A DNA stretch of 62,199 bases, filler included, from Globobulimina sp. (GCA_003354225.1; 28 parts of 28 records of this genome joined end to end with filler, not necessarily neighbours in it), one strand, 5' to 3'; shown: positions 13,362-59,626, numbered from the whole stretch's first letter. Notes: generated by a model not told the origin, from the letters alone. Numbers and translations are program-made.

Positions 13362-13416
13362 CACGCACGCACGCACACACACACGCGCACACACACACAC
13401 ACGCGCGCGCGCGCGC
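13362..13416. repeat. (CA)n/(CG)n microsatellite at the contig end
   Basis: cacgcacgcacgcacacac...gcgcgcgcgc. Confidence 0.9.
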
Positions 13417-14708
13417 AGTATCCATGTAGAGCTGTGCAGCGCCCCATGGCTGACATATGGCCGGCTATTTTGTGTCGAGACTATGGATGGCAATGAAGAC
13501 GCCGATTTGGATGCAATATTTCCATTTCGATGATTTTTTTTCTCCTCCTTTTCTTTGTCTTTATCCTTATCCTTATCCTTATCATTGTTTTTATTTTTAT
13601 TTTTGTTCTTGGTCTTGTCATCCTTTTTTTTCTTGCCGTTTAACAATGATTGACTTCTGCGGTGTGACTGTGACTGTGGCTGTGACTGTGGCTGTGTGTG
13701 GTTATTGTGGTTACTATGTCTGTGGTTATACGCATGTTGCAATTTGGAGGGAAAGGGTTTGCACAAATGGATGCCCATTTTGCTGATGCGACAACAGGCC
13801 AATATCTGTTCCGGTAATTGCTGGTTGCTGTGGCCCTCAATCACCAGTCCTATGTCATAGATGGCGGTCTGAATGGTGTCCTTCACGAAGGACAGTCCCT
13901 GGCGGGCCGTATAACCAAATACATGCACATCGATATCCGCGGCGAAATATTGGCACGGCTCATAATAAAATGTAGACGAAGTGCGTGCTAAAAATGGTTT
14001 GCCATTATACCTTTTCAGTAATCGGTTGGCTAAAAAACCAAAATCTGTATAGGATGGATTCATGACACGGGCGATCACTTTGAATCTATTTCGGATCTCA
14101 GAGTCGACCAAATCGGAATGAATGAAGTCGCGCAATAAGGTGACCGCCGGTCGCTGTGCTTCTTCTTGGAGCGTATTAATTTCTTCCTGTACTTGTGTGG
14201 TCAAATGGGCGTAGAGCACGAATTGAAAGCCTTCGCCATCCGATTTAGAGCCAATTACCTCCGGCGGATAATTTGGTATCATGCAATTTAAGATAAATAA
14301 CGGTGGTAAAATATGTTTGGTTTTCTGGTTAGAACAGGCATATTTGGCGATATATTTATCAATGTTTATGAAATCCCAGATTTTATGCATTTTGTTTGGT
14401 AATTTGTAGGCATCCATAGCAAATACGCTGTATAGGGCTTTTTTAGATGGTGATTTCTGTCCGGATCCGGGTTTGTAGTTTGGACCACGCCGTACATTGA
14501 ATGTCGTGGCATCGCAATTTGACCACGAAGCGGGTCGGCCAGTGGCCTCGATTTTGTTTTCATCCATGCTAAAATTCTCAATTTCGTGATGTTGTAACAT
14601 TCCTACTTCCAATAATTCTTTCAATTCATCATCGTCATTCTCATTCTCTTCTTTCTCATTCTCTTTTTTATCCTTATCGTGAGATATATGGCCGTTTGAT
14701 AAAGACAT
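13362..14708 (-). CDS. EDR2 C-terminal (DUF1336) domain protein; 3' end uncertain
   Basis: Motifs WS..DATTFNVRRGPNY, RFKVIARVMN, YNGKPFLAR, DIDVHVFGY and IEGH...LPEQILAC. Confidence 0.85.
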
Positions 14709-15324
14709 TCCAGTTCTTATCGCCTTTTTTTTTCAATTTTTTGCGAATTTGCGAGTTAGTTGAATGGTTTGCAAATTGCGTGTAAATACATACATGCAAC
14801 TTTCACCAAAACAAAGTGGCAACGAAGCGATGGTTTCAAGAAGTTAAAGATGTTTTGGAAATGAAAAAAACCCACCAAAAAACTATGAATGTTGGGTCAA
14901 TCCGACCACGTCCGTTGTAATGATATTTTGATGCTGGATTTGATTTGATTTGATTTCGTTATTTCGCATTGCTATTTTGTTGTTGCATCACTGAGTTTTT
15001 TTTATTCAATAAGTAAATATTTAAAATAAAAATAATTAAAAACAAATATTAAAGTTTGCACATTTTTCATTTTGGTTGCAATTATCTTATTTAATTTTAT
15101 TACCAATCAAATATTTATTATTTCTTTTCTATATATTCATATATTAATTTTGTTATTGATTTTGTTTTCCTGTGATTCTGTTCCTCTGTTTCTGTCGTTG
15201 TAAACATTTGTTTACTTATTTATACATCAAATATGTGCTTTTATGTATGGTGTAATAACCATATATTTTATAAATCCCTTGTGTGATTGTAATGGCGTGA
15301 GTCTTTGAATGTGTTTATTTAAAT

Positions 15325-28838: not shown

Positions 28839-29185
28839 NNNNNNNNNNNNNNNNNNNNNNNNNNNNNNNNNNNNNNNNNNNNTTAATTAATTAANNNNNN
28901 NNNNNNNNNNNNNNNNNNNNNNNNNNNNNNNNNNNNNNGATAAGATATGGAATACATTGATGAGCGGATGTGTCAAATATAACCACACATTGTTAGCGCA
29001 ACATGTTTATAATCAAATGGAAAAACGATTTCAATGCGCATCGAATACTATGACACTTGCAGATCTATCACTTTCTAATATATATTCTGTACATACACAC
29101 TCCCAATGAATCACTCATTTTACAACATTTTAATTTACCCATCATTTTGTATATTAAACATTTTTTTTCTTCAACTTGACTTGCA

Positions 29186-31034
29186 ATGGCAACTCAAGAT
29201 TCTTACCATGACACAGTCTCTAAAATGGCTAAAAAATACAGTCAATACAGACTCCCCGAACCTTCTGAATTATTCGATTCAGACGATGACAATAATAACC
29301 ACAACAACCGTCTGAAGAGTAGATCATTAAACGACCTACATATGAACAGCAAGCCTGTAGCTCCCATCCACGTAAACAATCCTCATTTATCCAATCACAG
29401 CGACATCGCACACGAATCAAATGATGAAGAAGATGAAGATTTATTTTCAGAGACCAACACCATGATATCACACAAATCCTACGCCTACACACTGCCCCCT
29501 AAAAGCAGCAAACTGAGCAAAGTAAGTTTTTCATTTGAACCAACAACCTACAATCCAATGGAAGAGATCCGCGGGATCCAAACCGACAAAGCTTTGTTTA
29601 TCCACATCTTTGATAAATACTTTGATGAATCCAAGGAAGGCGATGTCGATTTCAGTGAGTTTAGAAAAGGTCTATTTAAGTTGGGGCATACTGGAAGCAA
29701 TCAGCATATACGAAAACTGTTTGACATTTTGTTAATGAATGGCGATGTCGATGTAGCTCTGCAATTGCATGGCGTTGATAGCGGTCAGTATTTACAAAGT
29801 GATCAATTCTCTGATTTTTTAACCCGAAAGTTTGACAATCCGCAGCTGATTGCATTTCAGCAGCTGTTGTTGAATATTATTGTTCCAAATACAAAGAGGA
29901 ATGATAGTCGACAGAGTTTGATCAGTGCGCATGATGCGGTGCAGTGGGACGCTGCCAAAGTATCATTGACTGAGATCGAAATGAGGTACAGTACAGTACA
30001 TATTATATATTTTGTTTTTAGTTTCGGAATAAAATATGCATTGCATTTGCAGACAAGCGATGGAGCAAATGGTCGATTCCGAGATGTCGAAAATCAAAAA
30101 AACGAGTGAATTTCAAGAGGAACTATCGCGAAGAATGGCGGACCCACAGTTTTGCAACGATTTAAACGCAGAAAATTGGGACTACTATGAAGTGGCTTAT
30201 TGGGTACAACAAAATGGATATAAGTATTGCATGAAACGCTTTTTTGATCAACAAATTGATGGAAATGTACTATTGTATGATATAAATGTTTCTATGCTGG
30301 TGAATACATTGGGGGTCACCACCTTGCATAGTAACAAATTTATGCGCAATTTAGTTGATTTGAAAACGAAAATAAATCAAAATAAAACTGTTTTAAATTG
30401 TGATTACAACGTTTGTGATATTGATATAGCATCAAATCCAGAGGTTTATGGAAAGAAAATCAACGCTTTGCACTCTGAGAAAGAGACATTAAATGAAAAG
30501 ATATTAGCTTTGCAGTTCGATTTGAATGGAAGCAAACAAAAGTTATTGAACGCTCAACAAGAAATTGTTGCATTGAGTAAAATTATGCAGTCGAATAATA
30601 CTAAGTTAATTGATTACGATTCCATGAAGTCATTATATGATTCGGTGTGTAAACAGCTGAATGACACAAAGATTGAATATCAAAATACAAAACATACACA
30701 TGAATCTCATATGGAACTGTTAAAAAAACAAAATGATGGTCAAATGTCTGTGTTGAAACAGGAAATTGCAAAATTGAGCAATATGAATGATTCCCTGTCG
30801 GACGAAAATGTGCAATTAAAAACAAAAATTAATATTGCAAATGTTCAACAACGCTCTGCCGCAGTTGAAGAAGAGGAAAAAAATAGTTTGGACAATATTG
30901 ATTTTGCTAAACGCGAGGAATGGAACGGCGAGGAAGTTGGATATTGGTTGGCGTCGATTGGGATGAAAATGTACATCAAACAGTTTGAACAGTTGGATGT
31001 TGACGGACAGATATTATTTAATGACATAAATTGA
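29186..31034 (+). CDS. EF-hand + SAM + coiled-coil + SAM protein; intron 29986-30052; 3' end uncertain
   Basis: EF-hand FDESKEGDVDFSEF. SAM motifs WDYYEVAYWV...IDGNVLL and WNGEEVGYWL...VDGQIL. Confidence 0.8.
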
Positions 31035-31163
31035 CACGCATGCTCCGCAAATGCAGTATATATNNNNNNNNNNNNNNNNNNNNNNNNNNNNNNNNNNNNN
31101 NNNNNNNTTAATTAATTAANNNNNNNNNNNNNNNNNNNNNNNNNNNNNNNNNNNNNNNNNNNN

Positions 31164-33288
31164 TAGAAACATCAACAATCTGAATATAAAATTATTGAAT
31201 TCATTGATTGATTTTTATGGATATTTTGGTGATATTGAGAACGCATTGGCGGTCTTTGATGGTGTGAGTGATGACAAAAAAGATTTTGTTTCCATTGGGT
31301 CAATGATGAATGCATTGATAATTAATGATAAGAATGAAAGTGTTATTGTATTGTATGACAAATATAAACCATTGATGGATGATACATCGTTTGCATTGCT
31401 ATTTAAAGCCTGTATTAACAGTAAGAACTTTGAAAAAGGACAAACAATTTATTACAATGTGATTACACACAGGCAAAATATAAATATTTCACTCTATAAT
31501 ACATTAATTGATTTCTTTGGTAGTTTCAATGATATTACACAAGCAACGCATATATTTGATAATGTTCCTTGTAATGCAATAGATGTAGTAACTGTTGGTA
31601 CCATAATGAAAATATATATAAATAATGAGGAGAGTAGCAAAGCATTATTGTTCTACGACAAATATGAATTATTACAGGATAATATATCACATACATTGGC
31701 CATTCGAGCAAGTAAAAACATGAATGATTTTGCAAAAGGTAAAGAAATTCATGATAAAATTGCAGCAGATTTAAATGATGCAGATATCCAATGTTATAAT
31801 ACATTGATTGATTTTTATTGTCACTTTGCTGACATATTTACAGCGACTCAAATATTTAATGGTATATCAGAAAACAAAATAAACTCTCAAACTATAAATA
31901 TTATAATGAAGGCATATATTAAATGTAAGTCAAACTATTGTGATAAAGCATTAATAATTTATGACAGATTCCATTCATTAAGTAATGATATATCTCATTT
32001 ATATGCCATAAAAGCCTGTATTCTGTCTGATAATTTTGAGAAAGGTCAATTTATTTATGATTACGTTACAAATAATAATGCCTTATCCGATACCTTTGAT
32101 AATATAATATTAAAGAATGCATTTATTGAATTGTATGGGCATTTCAACAAAATTGATACTGCCATATTCATATTTGATTCCATTAATGAATGTGAAAAAG
32201 ATACGACCACTGTTAACGCATTGATTAAGTGTTTAGTTTCGAATGAAAACACATTGACATTGACATTTTATCGAAAATATTATGAATTAACGGATGATTT
32301 TTCGCATATATTGGCGCTGAAATCATGTAAACGTAATAACAATAAACAGTTTGGTTTCGATATCTATGAAGAAACACATAAAAATGCGACAATTATGCTA
32401 GAAAATGCTTTTATAGATTTCTTTGGATATTTTGGCGATATTAATTTTGCAATAAAAGTATTTGAAAATGTGGTTAACAAAGATAGTGCAACAATAAATT
32501 CAATGATCTCTGTTTTTGGTGATTGTCAACGATATTGTGATTGTATAGCAGTGTATGATAAAAATGAAATGTTCCAAGATGACATTTCACATTTACTAAT
32601 AATAAATATTTGCGCCAAAAGCGATAACTTTGAAAAAGGAAAGGAAATTTATCTCAAAATAAAAGATTTGGATAAAAGCATTGCATTACAAAATACATTA
32701 ATTGATTTTTTTGGAACTTTTGGTTGTATTTCCAGTTCATTATCAATATTTAATTCAATTCCAAATGAAACAAAAGATATTTATAGCATTGGTGTAATGA
32801 TGAATGCATATTGTAATTGTAAAATGTATATTGAATGCATTAAGTTATTCGAAAATATTGAGAATTATAATGCCAACTTAGAAGCGAATGTAGTGTGTTA
32901 TTCAAATTTATTTAAAGCCTGCACGCAAAGCACTGCATATCATTTTGGCAAACAAATTCACGAAAAACTAGAAAAAAAGCTAGATAATAAATGGATGTTA
33001 TCAGAAACGGAAATACAAATAACATTAATTAATATGTATGGCAAATGTTCAATGTTAAATGTTTGTAACGAGATATTTAATCCACAGACTGCTGAACTTG
33101 GAGTATGGAATGCCATTATTTATGCGCATGGACGAAATGGTTTTATTAATAAAGCATTGGAATTGTTTGATATTATGAGAAATGAAAGGAAATTAAGTGG
33201 TGATTATCGAACCTTTATCGTGTTGATAAATGGCTGCAGTCACAGTGGTAATATAGAGGAAGCGCGAGATATTTGGGAGAATAAAATT
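31164..33288 (+). CDS. PLS-type pentatricopeptide repeat protein; both ends partial
   Basis: Six ~100-aa triplets (N.LIDF.G.F / TI..MM.A / SH.LAIKAC...FEKG), followed by LINMYGKC, WNAIIYAHGRNG...ALELF and TFIVLINGCSHSGNIEEA. Confidence 0.9.
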
Positions 33289-33388
33289 NNNNNNNNNNNN
33301 NNNNNNNNNNNNNNNNNNNNNNNNNNNNNNNNTTAATTAATTAANNNNNNNNNNNNNNNNNNNNNNNNNNNNNNNNNNNNNNNNNNNN

Positions 33389-55681: not shown

Positions 55682-57753
55682 TTAATCTTGATTTGCGCAT
55701 TTTGATAAAGATTGCGCTGTTGACACAGTCAATCTTTGCGAGACAGCACCTTGGAAATATTTCGGTTGTCCGCCACCAGCATAAATGAGAAAATCTCCTT
55801 TCTCGATGTTAACATCTGGCTGGAAATAAGTTGGTGATGTTTTGTTATAGACGGCAGAATGATATCGCGGCGTCAAAATCAAGTTAACATCTCGCGTTGC
55901 TCCAGGCGCCAAATCTTTAACTCTTTCAAAATCCGCCAATCTTATTCTTGGAACGGGCACTGAAGCACTCTCCGATTGATCCACATACAATTGCACCACT
56001 TCATCGCCTCTCACATTTCCTGTGTTTTGAACTGACACTGTCACGCCAATAACAGCACATCCATCCAATGCATTATTCGTGGCATTCGTTCTTAAATTGG
56101 AATAGCTAAACGTCGTATAACTTAGCCCAAAACCAAATGGATACAATACTTGACCTGTAAAAAAGCGATAAGTCATTCCCTTTCCCGCATATTCATTCAT
56201 TTCACCTGGCGGAGCTAAATCAGCTGTTGATTGATAAAATGTCACTGCAGCTCTACCCGCCGGGCTTTTATACCCTAAAATAACATCAGCGATGGCATAG
56301 CCACCCATTTGTCCCGGATACCAGGCATCCACCACAGCATCGCATTGATCCGCGGCATTGCCTAAAGCTACAGCACCGCCATGTAATAATACACAGATCA
56401 GTGGCACTGGCACAGCCGCGGCAGCATTGTGATTATAGACTGCAGCGACTAAATCATTTTGGTGTCCTGGTAACTCAATTATGGTCCTATCATGTCCTTC
56501 ATTCTCTTGTCCCCCTTCTAAGCCAAGCATAACAATGATAGCCGACAAGCCATTGCCTGTTCGCATATTTGTAATCAAACCAAGTGCCTGTTGGAAGCCA
56601 GAGATATCATCACATCCAACGTTGTTGCATCCATTTGCATTTTCAACTTTTGAATTTCTATTTTTATTCAAACATTGTCCACTTGTTCTGCCATCACTAT
56701 CTACTTTGCCATCAGCTGTCTCTTTGAAATAACACGTGTTTTGATATAATGTCCAATAATTACAATCCGTTTGTTCCAAACATAATGAGCAACATTCCTC
56801 CACTGAGCTCGCTCCAGTGCCTGGACTGCCGTTTTGATAAAAGTCTACATTTTCAAGCACTGTACAGTTTGCAATCACATTCTCTCGCAACCCGCTGCGC
56901 AAACCCTCTAAAATTGTTTTACATCCTTTATCTGGATAATTTGCATAATTTCCTGCTAATATGCCTGGATTAATGGCCTGTGGCCCAATCACAGCAATCC
57001 CTGCATGCATATACAAAATTAAATTTATAATTATATTTTTATAAATGTTAAAATATAATTATACATATTCACCTTTGACAGTGTTTGGATCTAAAGGCAA
57101 TGCATTATTCCTATTCTTATACAAACAAATTGAATCCGCAGCAACCTGTCTCGATAAATTTAGATGTTTATCACTCTCAACGTCTGCGGAAGTTATATTA
57201 TTATAAGCCACATCTAACGGCGGATCGAAGAAACCCAACATAAATTTGGTACGGTACAATCTACGAAAAGCTGTATTCACGTCATCCTCCGTCATTAAAC
57301 CCTGCTGAATAGCAGCTGGAATTTGGTGAATAGCGCCAGTTCCACCGCCTTCCTGATCACAACCTGCTTTTATAGCAAGCGCCACAGCCTCAGCCATAGT
57401 GGAGGTATAATGATGCGTGTTTAATATATTCGCCATAGCGTCGTAATCAGACACCACAAATCCTTCAAAGCCCCATTGTTGTCTTAACACAGTGTCCAAT
57501 ATATTTTTATCGCCGCAGGTCGGAATGCCATTGATGGAGTTATAAGAGCACATAATATGCTGCACTTGGGAGCGGACCACACATTCACGGAATACTGGCG
57601 CATAGGTTTCTGCCCAACTCACCGCGTCAATAATCGCATTGAAAACCACTCGGTTCGCGGGAATAGTTTCTAAGTCATAGGCAGCAAAATGTTTGCAACA
57701 AGCAGCTAATAAAATATATTTGTCATTTTGTCCACCACCAAATTGATAGCCCT
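55682..57753 (-). CDS. Glycoside hydrolase family 3 (beta-xylosidase/glucosidase type) with an inserted PAN/apple domain; intron 57001-57072; 5' partial
   Basis: Motifs CCKHFAAY, MCSYNSING, GFVVSDY, EGHDR, WYPGQ and YPFGFGLSYT, plus an Fn3-like tail GDEVVQLY. Confidence 0.95.
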
Positions 57754-58096: not shown

Positions 58097-59626
58097 TTAC
58101 AAAACAATACAATCATCTTTACCATTTTTTTTCTTCTTTCTTTTTCCTTTTCTATTTTGATATTGATTGGCATATTGATCATAATTATGTGTATAAACAT
58201 TATTATTATTCTTCTGATTATTGTATGGATTGTTATTGCTGTTATACGGATTATTGTATGGATTATTATATGGATCATGTGCATTGTTATATGGATTTGA
58301 AGATAGTACATCATTAGAACCTCCATTACCATTTCCATATACATTGCCATATTTAGGTTGCTCGGTAATTTGCTGTTTTTCCAATTGTTGCATTGCTTCT
58401 CTTTGTTCTCGTTCAAGTTTTTCCAATTCACCAGATTTTAAACCTAATTGTTGTTCCAATGCTATTCTTTGTGCAATTGCGTTATCCACGGCATCATCAC
58501 ATTTTTTATCCATTACCTTATCATTCTTATTATTGCTATCATTGTCATTATCTGTTAATTTCTTATTAGTTTCATCATATTGTTTCTGTAAATATGCGTC
58601 TTGATCAGCTATAGAAAATCCTTGCGCTTGCTGTTGTTGCTGCTGTTTTAGTGTGTTGTTATACGATTCAATCTGAGCTTGCTGGCTATCATTCTGTGAG
58701 ATAACATTAAATTTATTGCTTACGAATTGTTCGTCGCCAGACAACTGTGATAATGATTGCCATGTAATGCGTCCATCCGCATCAACAATGCCTTCATCTG
58801 TCACCAACTCCCATATACATCCTTGCCGTTTATAGATTGCTGAAAAATGATTATTACGGAAAAATATTGCTATCTCATTCTCATTCATTACTTCGTGCAT
58901 TCGAGTCAATCCATGTGCGGTTAATTGCTGTTGGTACTTTTTTATGTGTAATGTTAATCAAAGTACGCGTATTCGGACAATGTATGATTTTGAATGACAT
59001 ACATCAGTGAGAAATTGTCGGATCATATCCTTTTCTTGCTCAATTTCAGCAACTTGGACATCGTCGAGCTTTGAATCAGTTTCAGAAGTTAACAAATCAA
59101 CGATTTCATTGTACGACTTATCGTGCATAATAGTGTATAATTGCTTGTCTTGCGGATCAATACACCATCCATGGAGTAACCGTATATTATAATTATCAAA
59201 CATGGCGATGGCCGATGTATATTCAAAATTTATTACATCATCAAATTTAATATTTATATCAAGTCCTTCTTCTAATTTGGGGAACAATTGAACACAATCC
59301 TCAATATTCTGTATTGCGTTCGCCATTTGTGATTCATTGATGTTATCCTTGCTTCCCATATTTACTTCAAATAGTTTGGTTAAATGATCTTTTAAACATC
59401 GCGTTAAATCTTTGAATTTTATTGAAGATATGTTTTGATTTACACGAATGTCGTTGTTTAACAACAATGCATTGCATAATCCCAACAATGGACACGGACC
59501 ACCCACGTTTTGGAGGATACGATGTGTTTTTTTACCCTTTTTTCTGCATTCTATAATAACACATTACATAAAATACATAATAATATTACATACATTAAAG
59601 TGGATTAGTTGGATTTTATACTCCAT
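58097..59626 (-). CDS. MINDY-1/2 (FAM63) family deubiquitinase with a C-terminal CAAX; multi-exon
   Basis: Motifs QNVGGPCPLL, GLDINIKF, LLHGW..DPQD, FFRNNHFS and LVTDEG; the protein ends DCIVL*. Confidence 0.92.

Follow-up and report, generated by a model that had tools for sequence, protein, structure and literature searches.

We identified, on a contig of foraminiferal DNA, the internal part of a PLS-class PPR gene, which with a probability of roughly 0.6 encodes an organellar RNA site-recognition factor of the PLS-E type that carries no DYW domain. The contig belongs to a stretch of 62,199 bases (the whole of the DNA analyzed here, referred to as the window), and the 708-codon translation of the gene fragment is named P0001. 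The original prediction for this locus, which was made from the sequence alone, described an array of PPR motifs and proposed a PPR-DYW-type system with its own recognition code; the observation was confirmed, whereas the interpretation was partly supported. The fragment comes from a gene of a known protein class, and no new system is involved.

Open Reading Frame and Host Organism

The window is composed of 28 contigs, each 2123–2127 bases long, which are arranged in order of falling length and separated by artificial spacers of the form N44-TTAATTAATTAA-N44 (e.g., 31064-31163 and 33289-33388). These contigs are unrelated and merely joined, and two features lying on different contigs are therefore not neighbors in the genome. 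Positions 31164-33288 correspond to exactly one contig of 2125 bases. Its frame 31165-33288 (plus strand) contains no stop in 708 codons, for which the chance calculated from base composition is 1.4e-30, and the remaining five frames have 30–109 stops each. It had been stated that the contig ends right after the last visible motif. This is true, and the contig also starts just 2125 bases earlier, so that the PPR frame is cut at the 5′ and 3′ ends alike, not at the 3′ end alone.

Logan contigs from the runs of two separate studies carry the PPR stretch at 99–100% identity, indicating that it is not an artefact of a single assembly. Compared with the PPR contig, X1 record 5 showed 1 difference over 968 nt and X2 record 14 showed none over 429 nt. 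Two other records go beyond the contig: X1 record 1 extends 240 nt before 31164, and X3 record 24 extends 179 nt beyond 33288. An exact 30-base search of metagenome contigs for an extension of the PPR gene gave no match, and a search of metagenome contigs for related loci gave 55 pattern matches, none of which was confirmed. Among the runs containing the PPR stretch, no RNA run is on record, and the 62,199-base window contains no mitochondrial DNA.

Positions 31190-31241, which encode the core of an S motif, are the only part of the PPR contig matched (at least 90% identity) by many Logan contigs of four runs, which diverge from it on both sides. Such local matches give false joints inside the PPR contig. 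A number of paralogs probably have this DNA motif in common, and it may account for assembly breaks within PPR genes.

With regard to the host, a frame encoding an EDR2_C domain (13362-14732, minus strand) shows 77% identity to a protein of Nonionella stella/Bolivina argentea, 69% to one of Ammonia sp., and 50% to one of Reticulomyxa filosa. Judged by sequence identity, the host belongs to the Foraminifera and is closer to rotaliids than to Reticulomyxa. Further contigs contain ordinary eukaryotic genes, encoding Ras-type GTPase, PH, SAM, hexokinase, MINDY, DSP phosphatase, and GH3 proteins in addition to EDR2_C. P0001 itself is 30–53% identical to foraminiferal-type relatives and 19–24% identical to named plant proteins. 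A species name was available for 12 of the 26 PPR relatives examined, which are from N. stella (11) and B. argentea (1).

It is very improbable that the PPR contig represents plant contaminant DNA or a dead copy. The P2-L2 signature by itself is plant-like, and otherwise no support for contamination was found; the difference in identity between named plant proteins and foraminiferal-type proteins, the origin of all 12 species-named relatives, a G+C content (28%) in line with that of neighboring contigs, and the presence of the stretch in two studies all speak against it. The lack of stops over 708 codons and the conservation of code residues between P0001 and its closest relative, P0105 (see below), likewise count against a contaminant or dead copy. 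Plant contamination was thus ruled out by the EDR2_C and PPR identities and by the named relatives, and the protist origin assumed in the original prediction holds.

Two genes on other contigs, encoding a GH3 glycosidase (55685-57751, minus strand) and a MINDY deubiquitinase (58100-59563, minus strand), are both interrupted, in each case by one in-frame stop. A variant genetic code was considered for these stops and rejected, as they lie in short AT-rich stretches resembling introns. The G+C content of the GH3 contig (0.385) is above that of neighboring contigs.

Architecture of the PPR Array

Profile searches of P0001 gave matches above the curated cut-offs for both Pfam families of PPR repeat proteins, PPR (PF01535; E = 1.7e-27, 94.1 bits, cut-off 25) and PPR_2 (PF13041; E = 4.5e-18, 65.5 bits, cut-off 30), as well as for NCBIfam TIGR00756 (E = 6.1e-25, 85.8 bits, cut-off 20). 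BLOSUM autocorrelation of P0001 revealed peaks at offsets of 100 (z = 7.8), 202 (z = 5.9), and 302 residues (z = 3.3); the highest z in 200 shuffles was 4.5. When the sequence was anchored on the core of the S motif, units of 100, 100, 106, 96, and 96 residues were obtained, followed by an end of 203 residues that contains two more units. In total, P0001 consists of seven S-P-L triplets, or 21 motifs, preceded by seven residues of another motif (table 1). About 21 motifs in a three-motif period had been predicted, and the 100-residue period and the seven triplets bear this out.

In an alignment of 308 near-complete triplets from 78 relatives and P0001, the S motif is approximately 33, the P-like motif approximately 32, and the L motif approximately 35 residues long, and the earlier description of the upstream triplets as short and divergent is thus right. 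On the basis of the period, the seven units, and the motif lengths, which together make up regular P/L/S triplets, P0001 is almost certainly a PLS-class PPR protein. The array closes in P2-L2 as had been proposed: Residues 646-708 align with the P2-L2 region of ten relatives, all of which continue into S2, and 27 residues of L2 precede the contig end. The strings quoted in the prediction (LINMYGKC; WNAII.AHG.NG...ALELF; TFIVLINGCSHSGNIEEA) are all present in the P0001 translation.

Table 1. Features of the PPR contig and of a second PPR gene in the window. Nucleotide coordinates of motifs and triplets were derived from residue numbers.
Feature	Position	Strand	Details
Internal fragment of PLS-class PPR gene (P0001, 708 codons)	31165..33288	+	Open frame, Pfam/NCBIfam; both ends cut
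Triplet 1 (S-P-L), residues 8-107	31186..31485	+	Code pairs S = ND, P = GD
Triplet 2, residues 108-207	31486..31785	+	S = ND, P = GD
Triplet 3, residues 208-313	31786..32103	+	S = NN, P = NN
Triplet 4, residues 314-409	32104..32391	+	S = ND, P = ND
Triplet 5, residues 410-505	32392..32679	+	S = ND, P = ND
Triplet 6, residues 506-616	32680..33012	+	S, canonical-length long P1, long L1
Last S motif (core LINMYGKC), residues 617-645	33013..33099	+	Alignment of relatives
P2 motif, residues 646-681 (36 aa)	33100..33207	+	Best Pfam PPR stretch 647-673
L2, first 27 residues (core CSHSG)	33208..33288	+	Stops at contig end
End of second PPR gene: E1, E2 stub, TGA stop, no DYW	28939..29109	+	Homologue alignment

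Closest Relative of P0001

A word-indexed search limited to proteins of 389–1239 residues gave 62 matches, the best of which had 36% identity. When 1.84 billion representatives were scanned in full with phmmer, 7814 matches were obtained at E <= 0.001 (784 at E <= 1e-30), with P0105 (1273 aa) at the top (E = 6.1e-280). This protein was missed by the first search because it is longer than the size range covered. In BLASTP, residues 7-708 of P0001 align in register with residues 467-1170 of P0105 (375/712, 53%), whereas the best off-register alignment has 33% identity. The two sequences also form a pair (SH-aLRT 96) in a tree of 79 rows that was calculated by maximum likelihood from the last 185 residues.

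P0105, an automatic gene call on an ENA contig of 11,098 bases, is complete whereas P0001 is a fragment. Upstream of the region matching P0001, it has 466 N-terminal residues that include three further triplets and whose start, examined by eye, is basic and rich in serine/threonine. Downstream are 103 residues comprising the rest of L2, S2, E1, and about 10 residues of E2, followed by the stop. Pfam detected no DYW domain in P0105 and no match to E_motif, and the E1 and E2 stub of this protein were recognized by alignment only. When shorter proteins were searched for a match to residues 600-708 of P0001, none was found. Considering that the two proteins are collinear, are sisters in the tree, and have 11 of 12 code pairs alike, P0105 reads as the counterpart of the P0001 gene in what would be another organism.

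A second PPR gene end, with which the neighboring contig begins at 28939, is also present in the window. The next ATG is at 29186, 77 bases past this end, and thus there is no room for a DYW domain after it. It fits 41–47 residues past the end of P0001 in homologue coordinates, which prompted the idea that it could be the 3′ end of the same gene. This idea was rejected: The fragment is nearest to P0173 (31/50, 62%), with P0105 outside the best 25 matches (20/45, or 44%, when compared directly), whereas the last 185 residues of P0001 are nearest to P0105 (57.8%), with P0173 at rank 72 (32.6%). By these comparisons they are two different PPR genes, and the presence of pieces of both in a random set of 28 contigs is a hint that the family is large.

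Downstream of the second gene end, the region 29186-31031 (plus strand) contains two overlapping frames of 307 residues (no Pfam match) and 332 residues (with a SAM domain at its end). These frames may be parts of a single gene that is interrupted near 30036-30109 by a frameshift or a short intron.

Occurrence of the DYW Domain in the Family

To define the family, a profile of the region from S2 through E1 to the start of E2 was built from ten relatives and run over 189 gathered proteins, 78 of which scored at or above the cut-off of 60 bits. DYW is present in 8 of the 78. Most of the others (49) stop within 25 residues past the E2 stub; 18 stop just past E1, 1–22 residues after an incomplete profile match, and contig ends may have truncated part of this group; the last 3 have other tails of 46–64 further residues without DYW. 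Counting paralogs had been proposed as a check on the predicted PPR-DYW system, and the result is divided: 8 of the 78 relatives with the S2-E1 region have the domain and 70 do not. Foraminifera nevertheless hold a sizeable PLS-class family, with at least 11 named members from one N. stella transcriptome.

The DYW domains of these eight are intact. Pfam DYW_deaminase matched P0008, P0032, P0035, and P0109 at E = 1e-25 to 4e-31, with HSE and CxxCH present, and at least seven DYW members are from the N. stella transcriptome. On the other hand, transcriptome-derived proteins of the same species, such as P0003, likewise end at the E2 stub, which indicates that unspliced introns are not the cause of the stop. 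Two relatives, P0037 and P0039, have a divergent DYW (Pfam E = 1e-11 and 2e-08) and about 400 other residues between the PLS array and DYW, an architecture unlike the usual L2-S2-E1-E2-DYW.

The DYW member P0008 is collinear, motif for motif, with P0222, starting at the PLS array and continuing through to the C-terminal residue. P0222 is a canonical PLS-E-E+-DYW protein, which matches Pfam E_motif, Eplus_motif, and DYW_deaminase and has the canonical tripeptide at its C-terminus. This unbroken alignment implies that the foraminiferal architecture is homologous to the plant one, although Pfam E_motif mostly fails in the former. No match to E_motif at E <= 0.01 was found in twelve relatives, including P0105 and P0002-P0008, and P0109, at 26.9 bits, stayed below the cut-off of 27.3.

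In the tree, the DYW-bearing rows are scattered, and four of the eight have a DYW-less sister (support 89–99). Either DYW was lost repeatedly or some gene models are truncated. As DYW status flips between close relatives, the lack of DYW in P0105 is a good, though not conclusive, guide to the P0001 gene, which quite probably lacks the domain as judged by this relative.

The alternative, in line with the original prediction, is that the gene runs on into a full E2 and a DYW of its own, forming a one-protein C-to-U editing factor. Over the last 96 residues, which include the S-P2-L2 end, P0001 scores best, P0105 aside, against the DYW-bearing P0008 (46/95, 48%) and P0032 (42/96, 44%), compared with 35–42% for most DYW-less relatives, and the cores YGKC and CSHSG are common to P0001, P0008, and P0032. 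The flips between sister rows and the eight DYW-bearing relatives also speak for such a gene. We nevertheless consider it unlikely, since the domain is missing in the closest relative and in 70 of 78 family members, and tblastn of five DYW proteins against the 62 kb window matched PPR parts only and gave no DYW-like stretch. The statement that DYW is not visible here is therefore borne out for the whole window. Regarding the PPR-DYW system as such, the lineage does have PPR-DYW proteins with intact HxE and CxxCH, whereas the nearest relative of P0001 has no DYW.

Recognition Residues of the S and P Motifs

The residues at position 5 and at the last position of a motif select the RNA base in the plant PPR code. 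Across the 308 aligned triplets, position 5 of the S motif is T in 39%, N in 35%, and S in 10%, and the last position is D in 48%, N in 27%, T in 11%, and S in 5%. The most frequent S pairs are ND (69), TD (49), TN (45), TT (16), NT (14), SN (13), SD (13), and NN (12), and those of the P motif are ND (116), NN (43), GN (33), and GD (28). These alphabets are those of the plant PPR code, and a private recognition code is thus not needed. The predicted code of its own is therefore not supported, given that position 5 of the S and P motifs draws on the plant-type alphabet T/N/S and the last position on D/N/T/S.

In P0001, the S pairs are, in order, ND, ND, NN, ND, ND, and ND, and the P pairs are GD, GD, NN, ND, ND, and one that is uncertain. 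Over the six triplets common to P0001 and P0105, 11 of the 12 S/P pairs are equal and follow one another in identical order, and the residue at position 5 of the L motif agrees in 5 of 6 cases. The twelfth pair, which differs (GA against GN), is located in the long P1 motif, which is poorly aligned by the triplet model. Under the plant code, the pairs of P0001 and P0105 predict that the S and P positions would read mainly pyrimidines, and mostly U. Near-identical code pairs at an overall identity of 53% are as expected from a conserved RNA target, which argues for such a target of P0001 and P0105 at the level of sequence and speaks against a private code.

Possible Function

Plant E-class PPR proteins lack DYW and recruit the deaminase in trans. 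By analogy, we suggest that P0001 is the middle of a foraminiferal nuclear gene for a PLS-class PPR protein of this kind. If modeled on P0105, the complete protein would be longer than the fragment by about 460 residues in front, with a basic, presequence-like start and three triplets, and by about 100 residues behind, representing the rest of L2, S2, E1, and the E2 stub, with no DYW. The seven S-P-L triplets of P0001 would form a superhelix that reads single-stranded RNA with one base per motif, the base being selected by position 5 and the last position of the S and P motifs. The protein would thereby bind, in a sequence-specific manner, to a pyrimidine-rich stretch of a mitochondrial transcript and most likely mark a C for deamination, and the deaminase would be borrowed in trans from a DYW-bearing paralog of the same family. 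We infer the mitochondrial location, RNA binding, editing role, and trans recruitment from the plant system and the make-up of the family. For the P0001 gene itself, the chances that it serves editing are, by this analogy, about even.

It is also conceivable that the gene encodes a PLS-class PPR protein with a non-editing job, such as the stabilization or processing of mitochondrial transcripts, assistance in their translation, or the handling of the fragmented rRNA pieces that are found in retarian mitochondria. The absence of the deaminase from most family members would agree with such a role, as would the monotonous code of P0001, whose S motifs are almost all ND. In foraminiferal mitogenomes the rRNA genes are fragmented and nad1 is split, and C-to-U editing is not described for them in the available text of PMC10127745. 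We regard a non-editing job as rather improbable. Against it, the family retains the P2-L2-S2-E1 end, and intact DYW paralogs are present within the same transcriptome of N. stella. In plants, this C-terminal end accompanies editing.

The preferred reading remains a DYW-less site-recognition factor. At the level of the family, plant-style code residues have been kept and a deaminase is present in approximately one-tenth of the members. This make-up predicts C-to-U editing in foraminiferal mitochondria with the deaminase acting in trans. Our suggestion that foraminifera run a plant-like, two-part mitochondrial editing, in which many DYW-less PLS proteins with an E2 stub, P0001 among them, pick the sites and a DYW minority acts in trans, is a tentative one, and we consider it possible rather than probable. 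If true, two-part editing would alter the reading of foraminiferal mitochondrial genes and of COI barcodes.

Comparison with Known Systems

Few PPR editing factors of the plant type are known from other eukaryotes, and how they arose there is debated. In the literature searched, we found no paper describing PPR or DYW proteins of Foraminifera or reporting C-to-U editing in their mitochondria. The available text of PMC13386178 covers DYW-type PPR proteins of bdelloid rotifers and gives a tally of "31 DYW in Rhizaria" without naming Foraminifera. For paradinid rhizarians, mitochondrial C-to-U editing has been described and called the first in Rhizaria (PMC11946409, available text). Retarian mitogenomes are reported to have fragmented rRNAs, a split nad1, and, in Miliolida, a cox1 frameshift, and the accessible part of the same report mentions no C-to-U editing in foraminiferal mitochondria (PMC10127745). 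In Naegleria, DYW-type PPR proteins are present and mitochondrial editing has been shown, and 16 DYW-type proteins are listed for Physarum in the available text of PMC4758236.

The foraminiferal family resembles the E subgroup of land-plant PLS proteins in its P/L/S triplets, in the terminal P2-L2 followed in P0105 by S2 and E1 without a deaminase, and in the S motifs, where T/N/S occupy position 5 and D/N/T/S the last one. It differs from this subgroup in its host and in its low identity to named plant proteins (19–24%). In addition, the inner P-like motifs are shorter (about 32 rather than 35 residues) and do not have the tryptophan that is usual there, and E2 is reduced to a stub of about 10–25 residues, with Pfam E_motif unmatched at E <= 0.01. 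On the other hand, the DYW members keep HxE and CxxC, as do the DYW-type PPR proteins of Naegleria gruberi, Physarum polycephalum, bdelloid rotifers, paradinids, and fungi of the Agaricales. The repeats of Physarum are mostly of the "LS-type" according to the available text of PMC4758236, whereas the foraminiferal family has full three-motif triplets. Unlike the other non-plant DYW-type PPR families, the foraminiferal one consists mostly of members without DYW.
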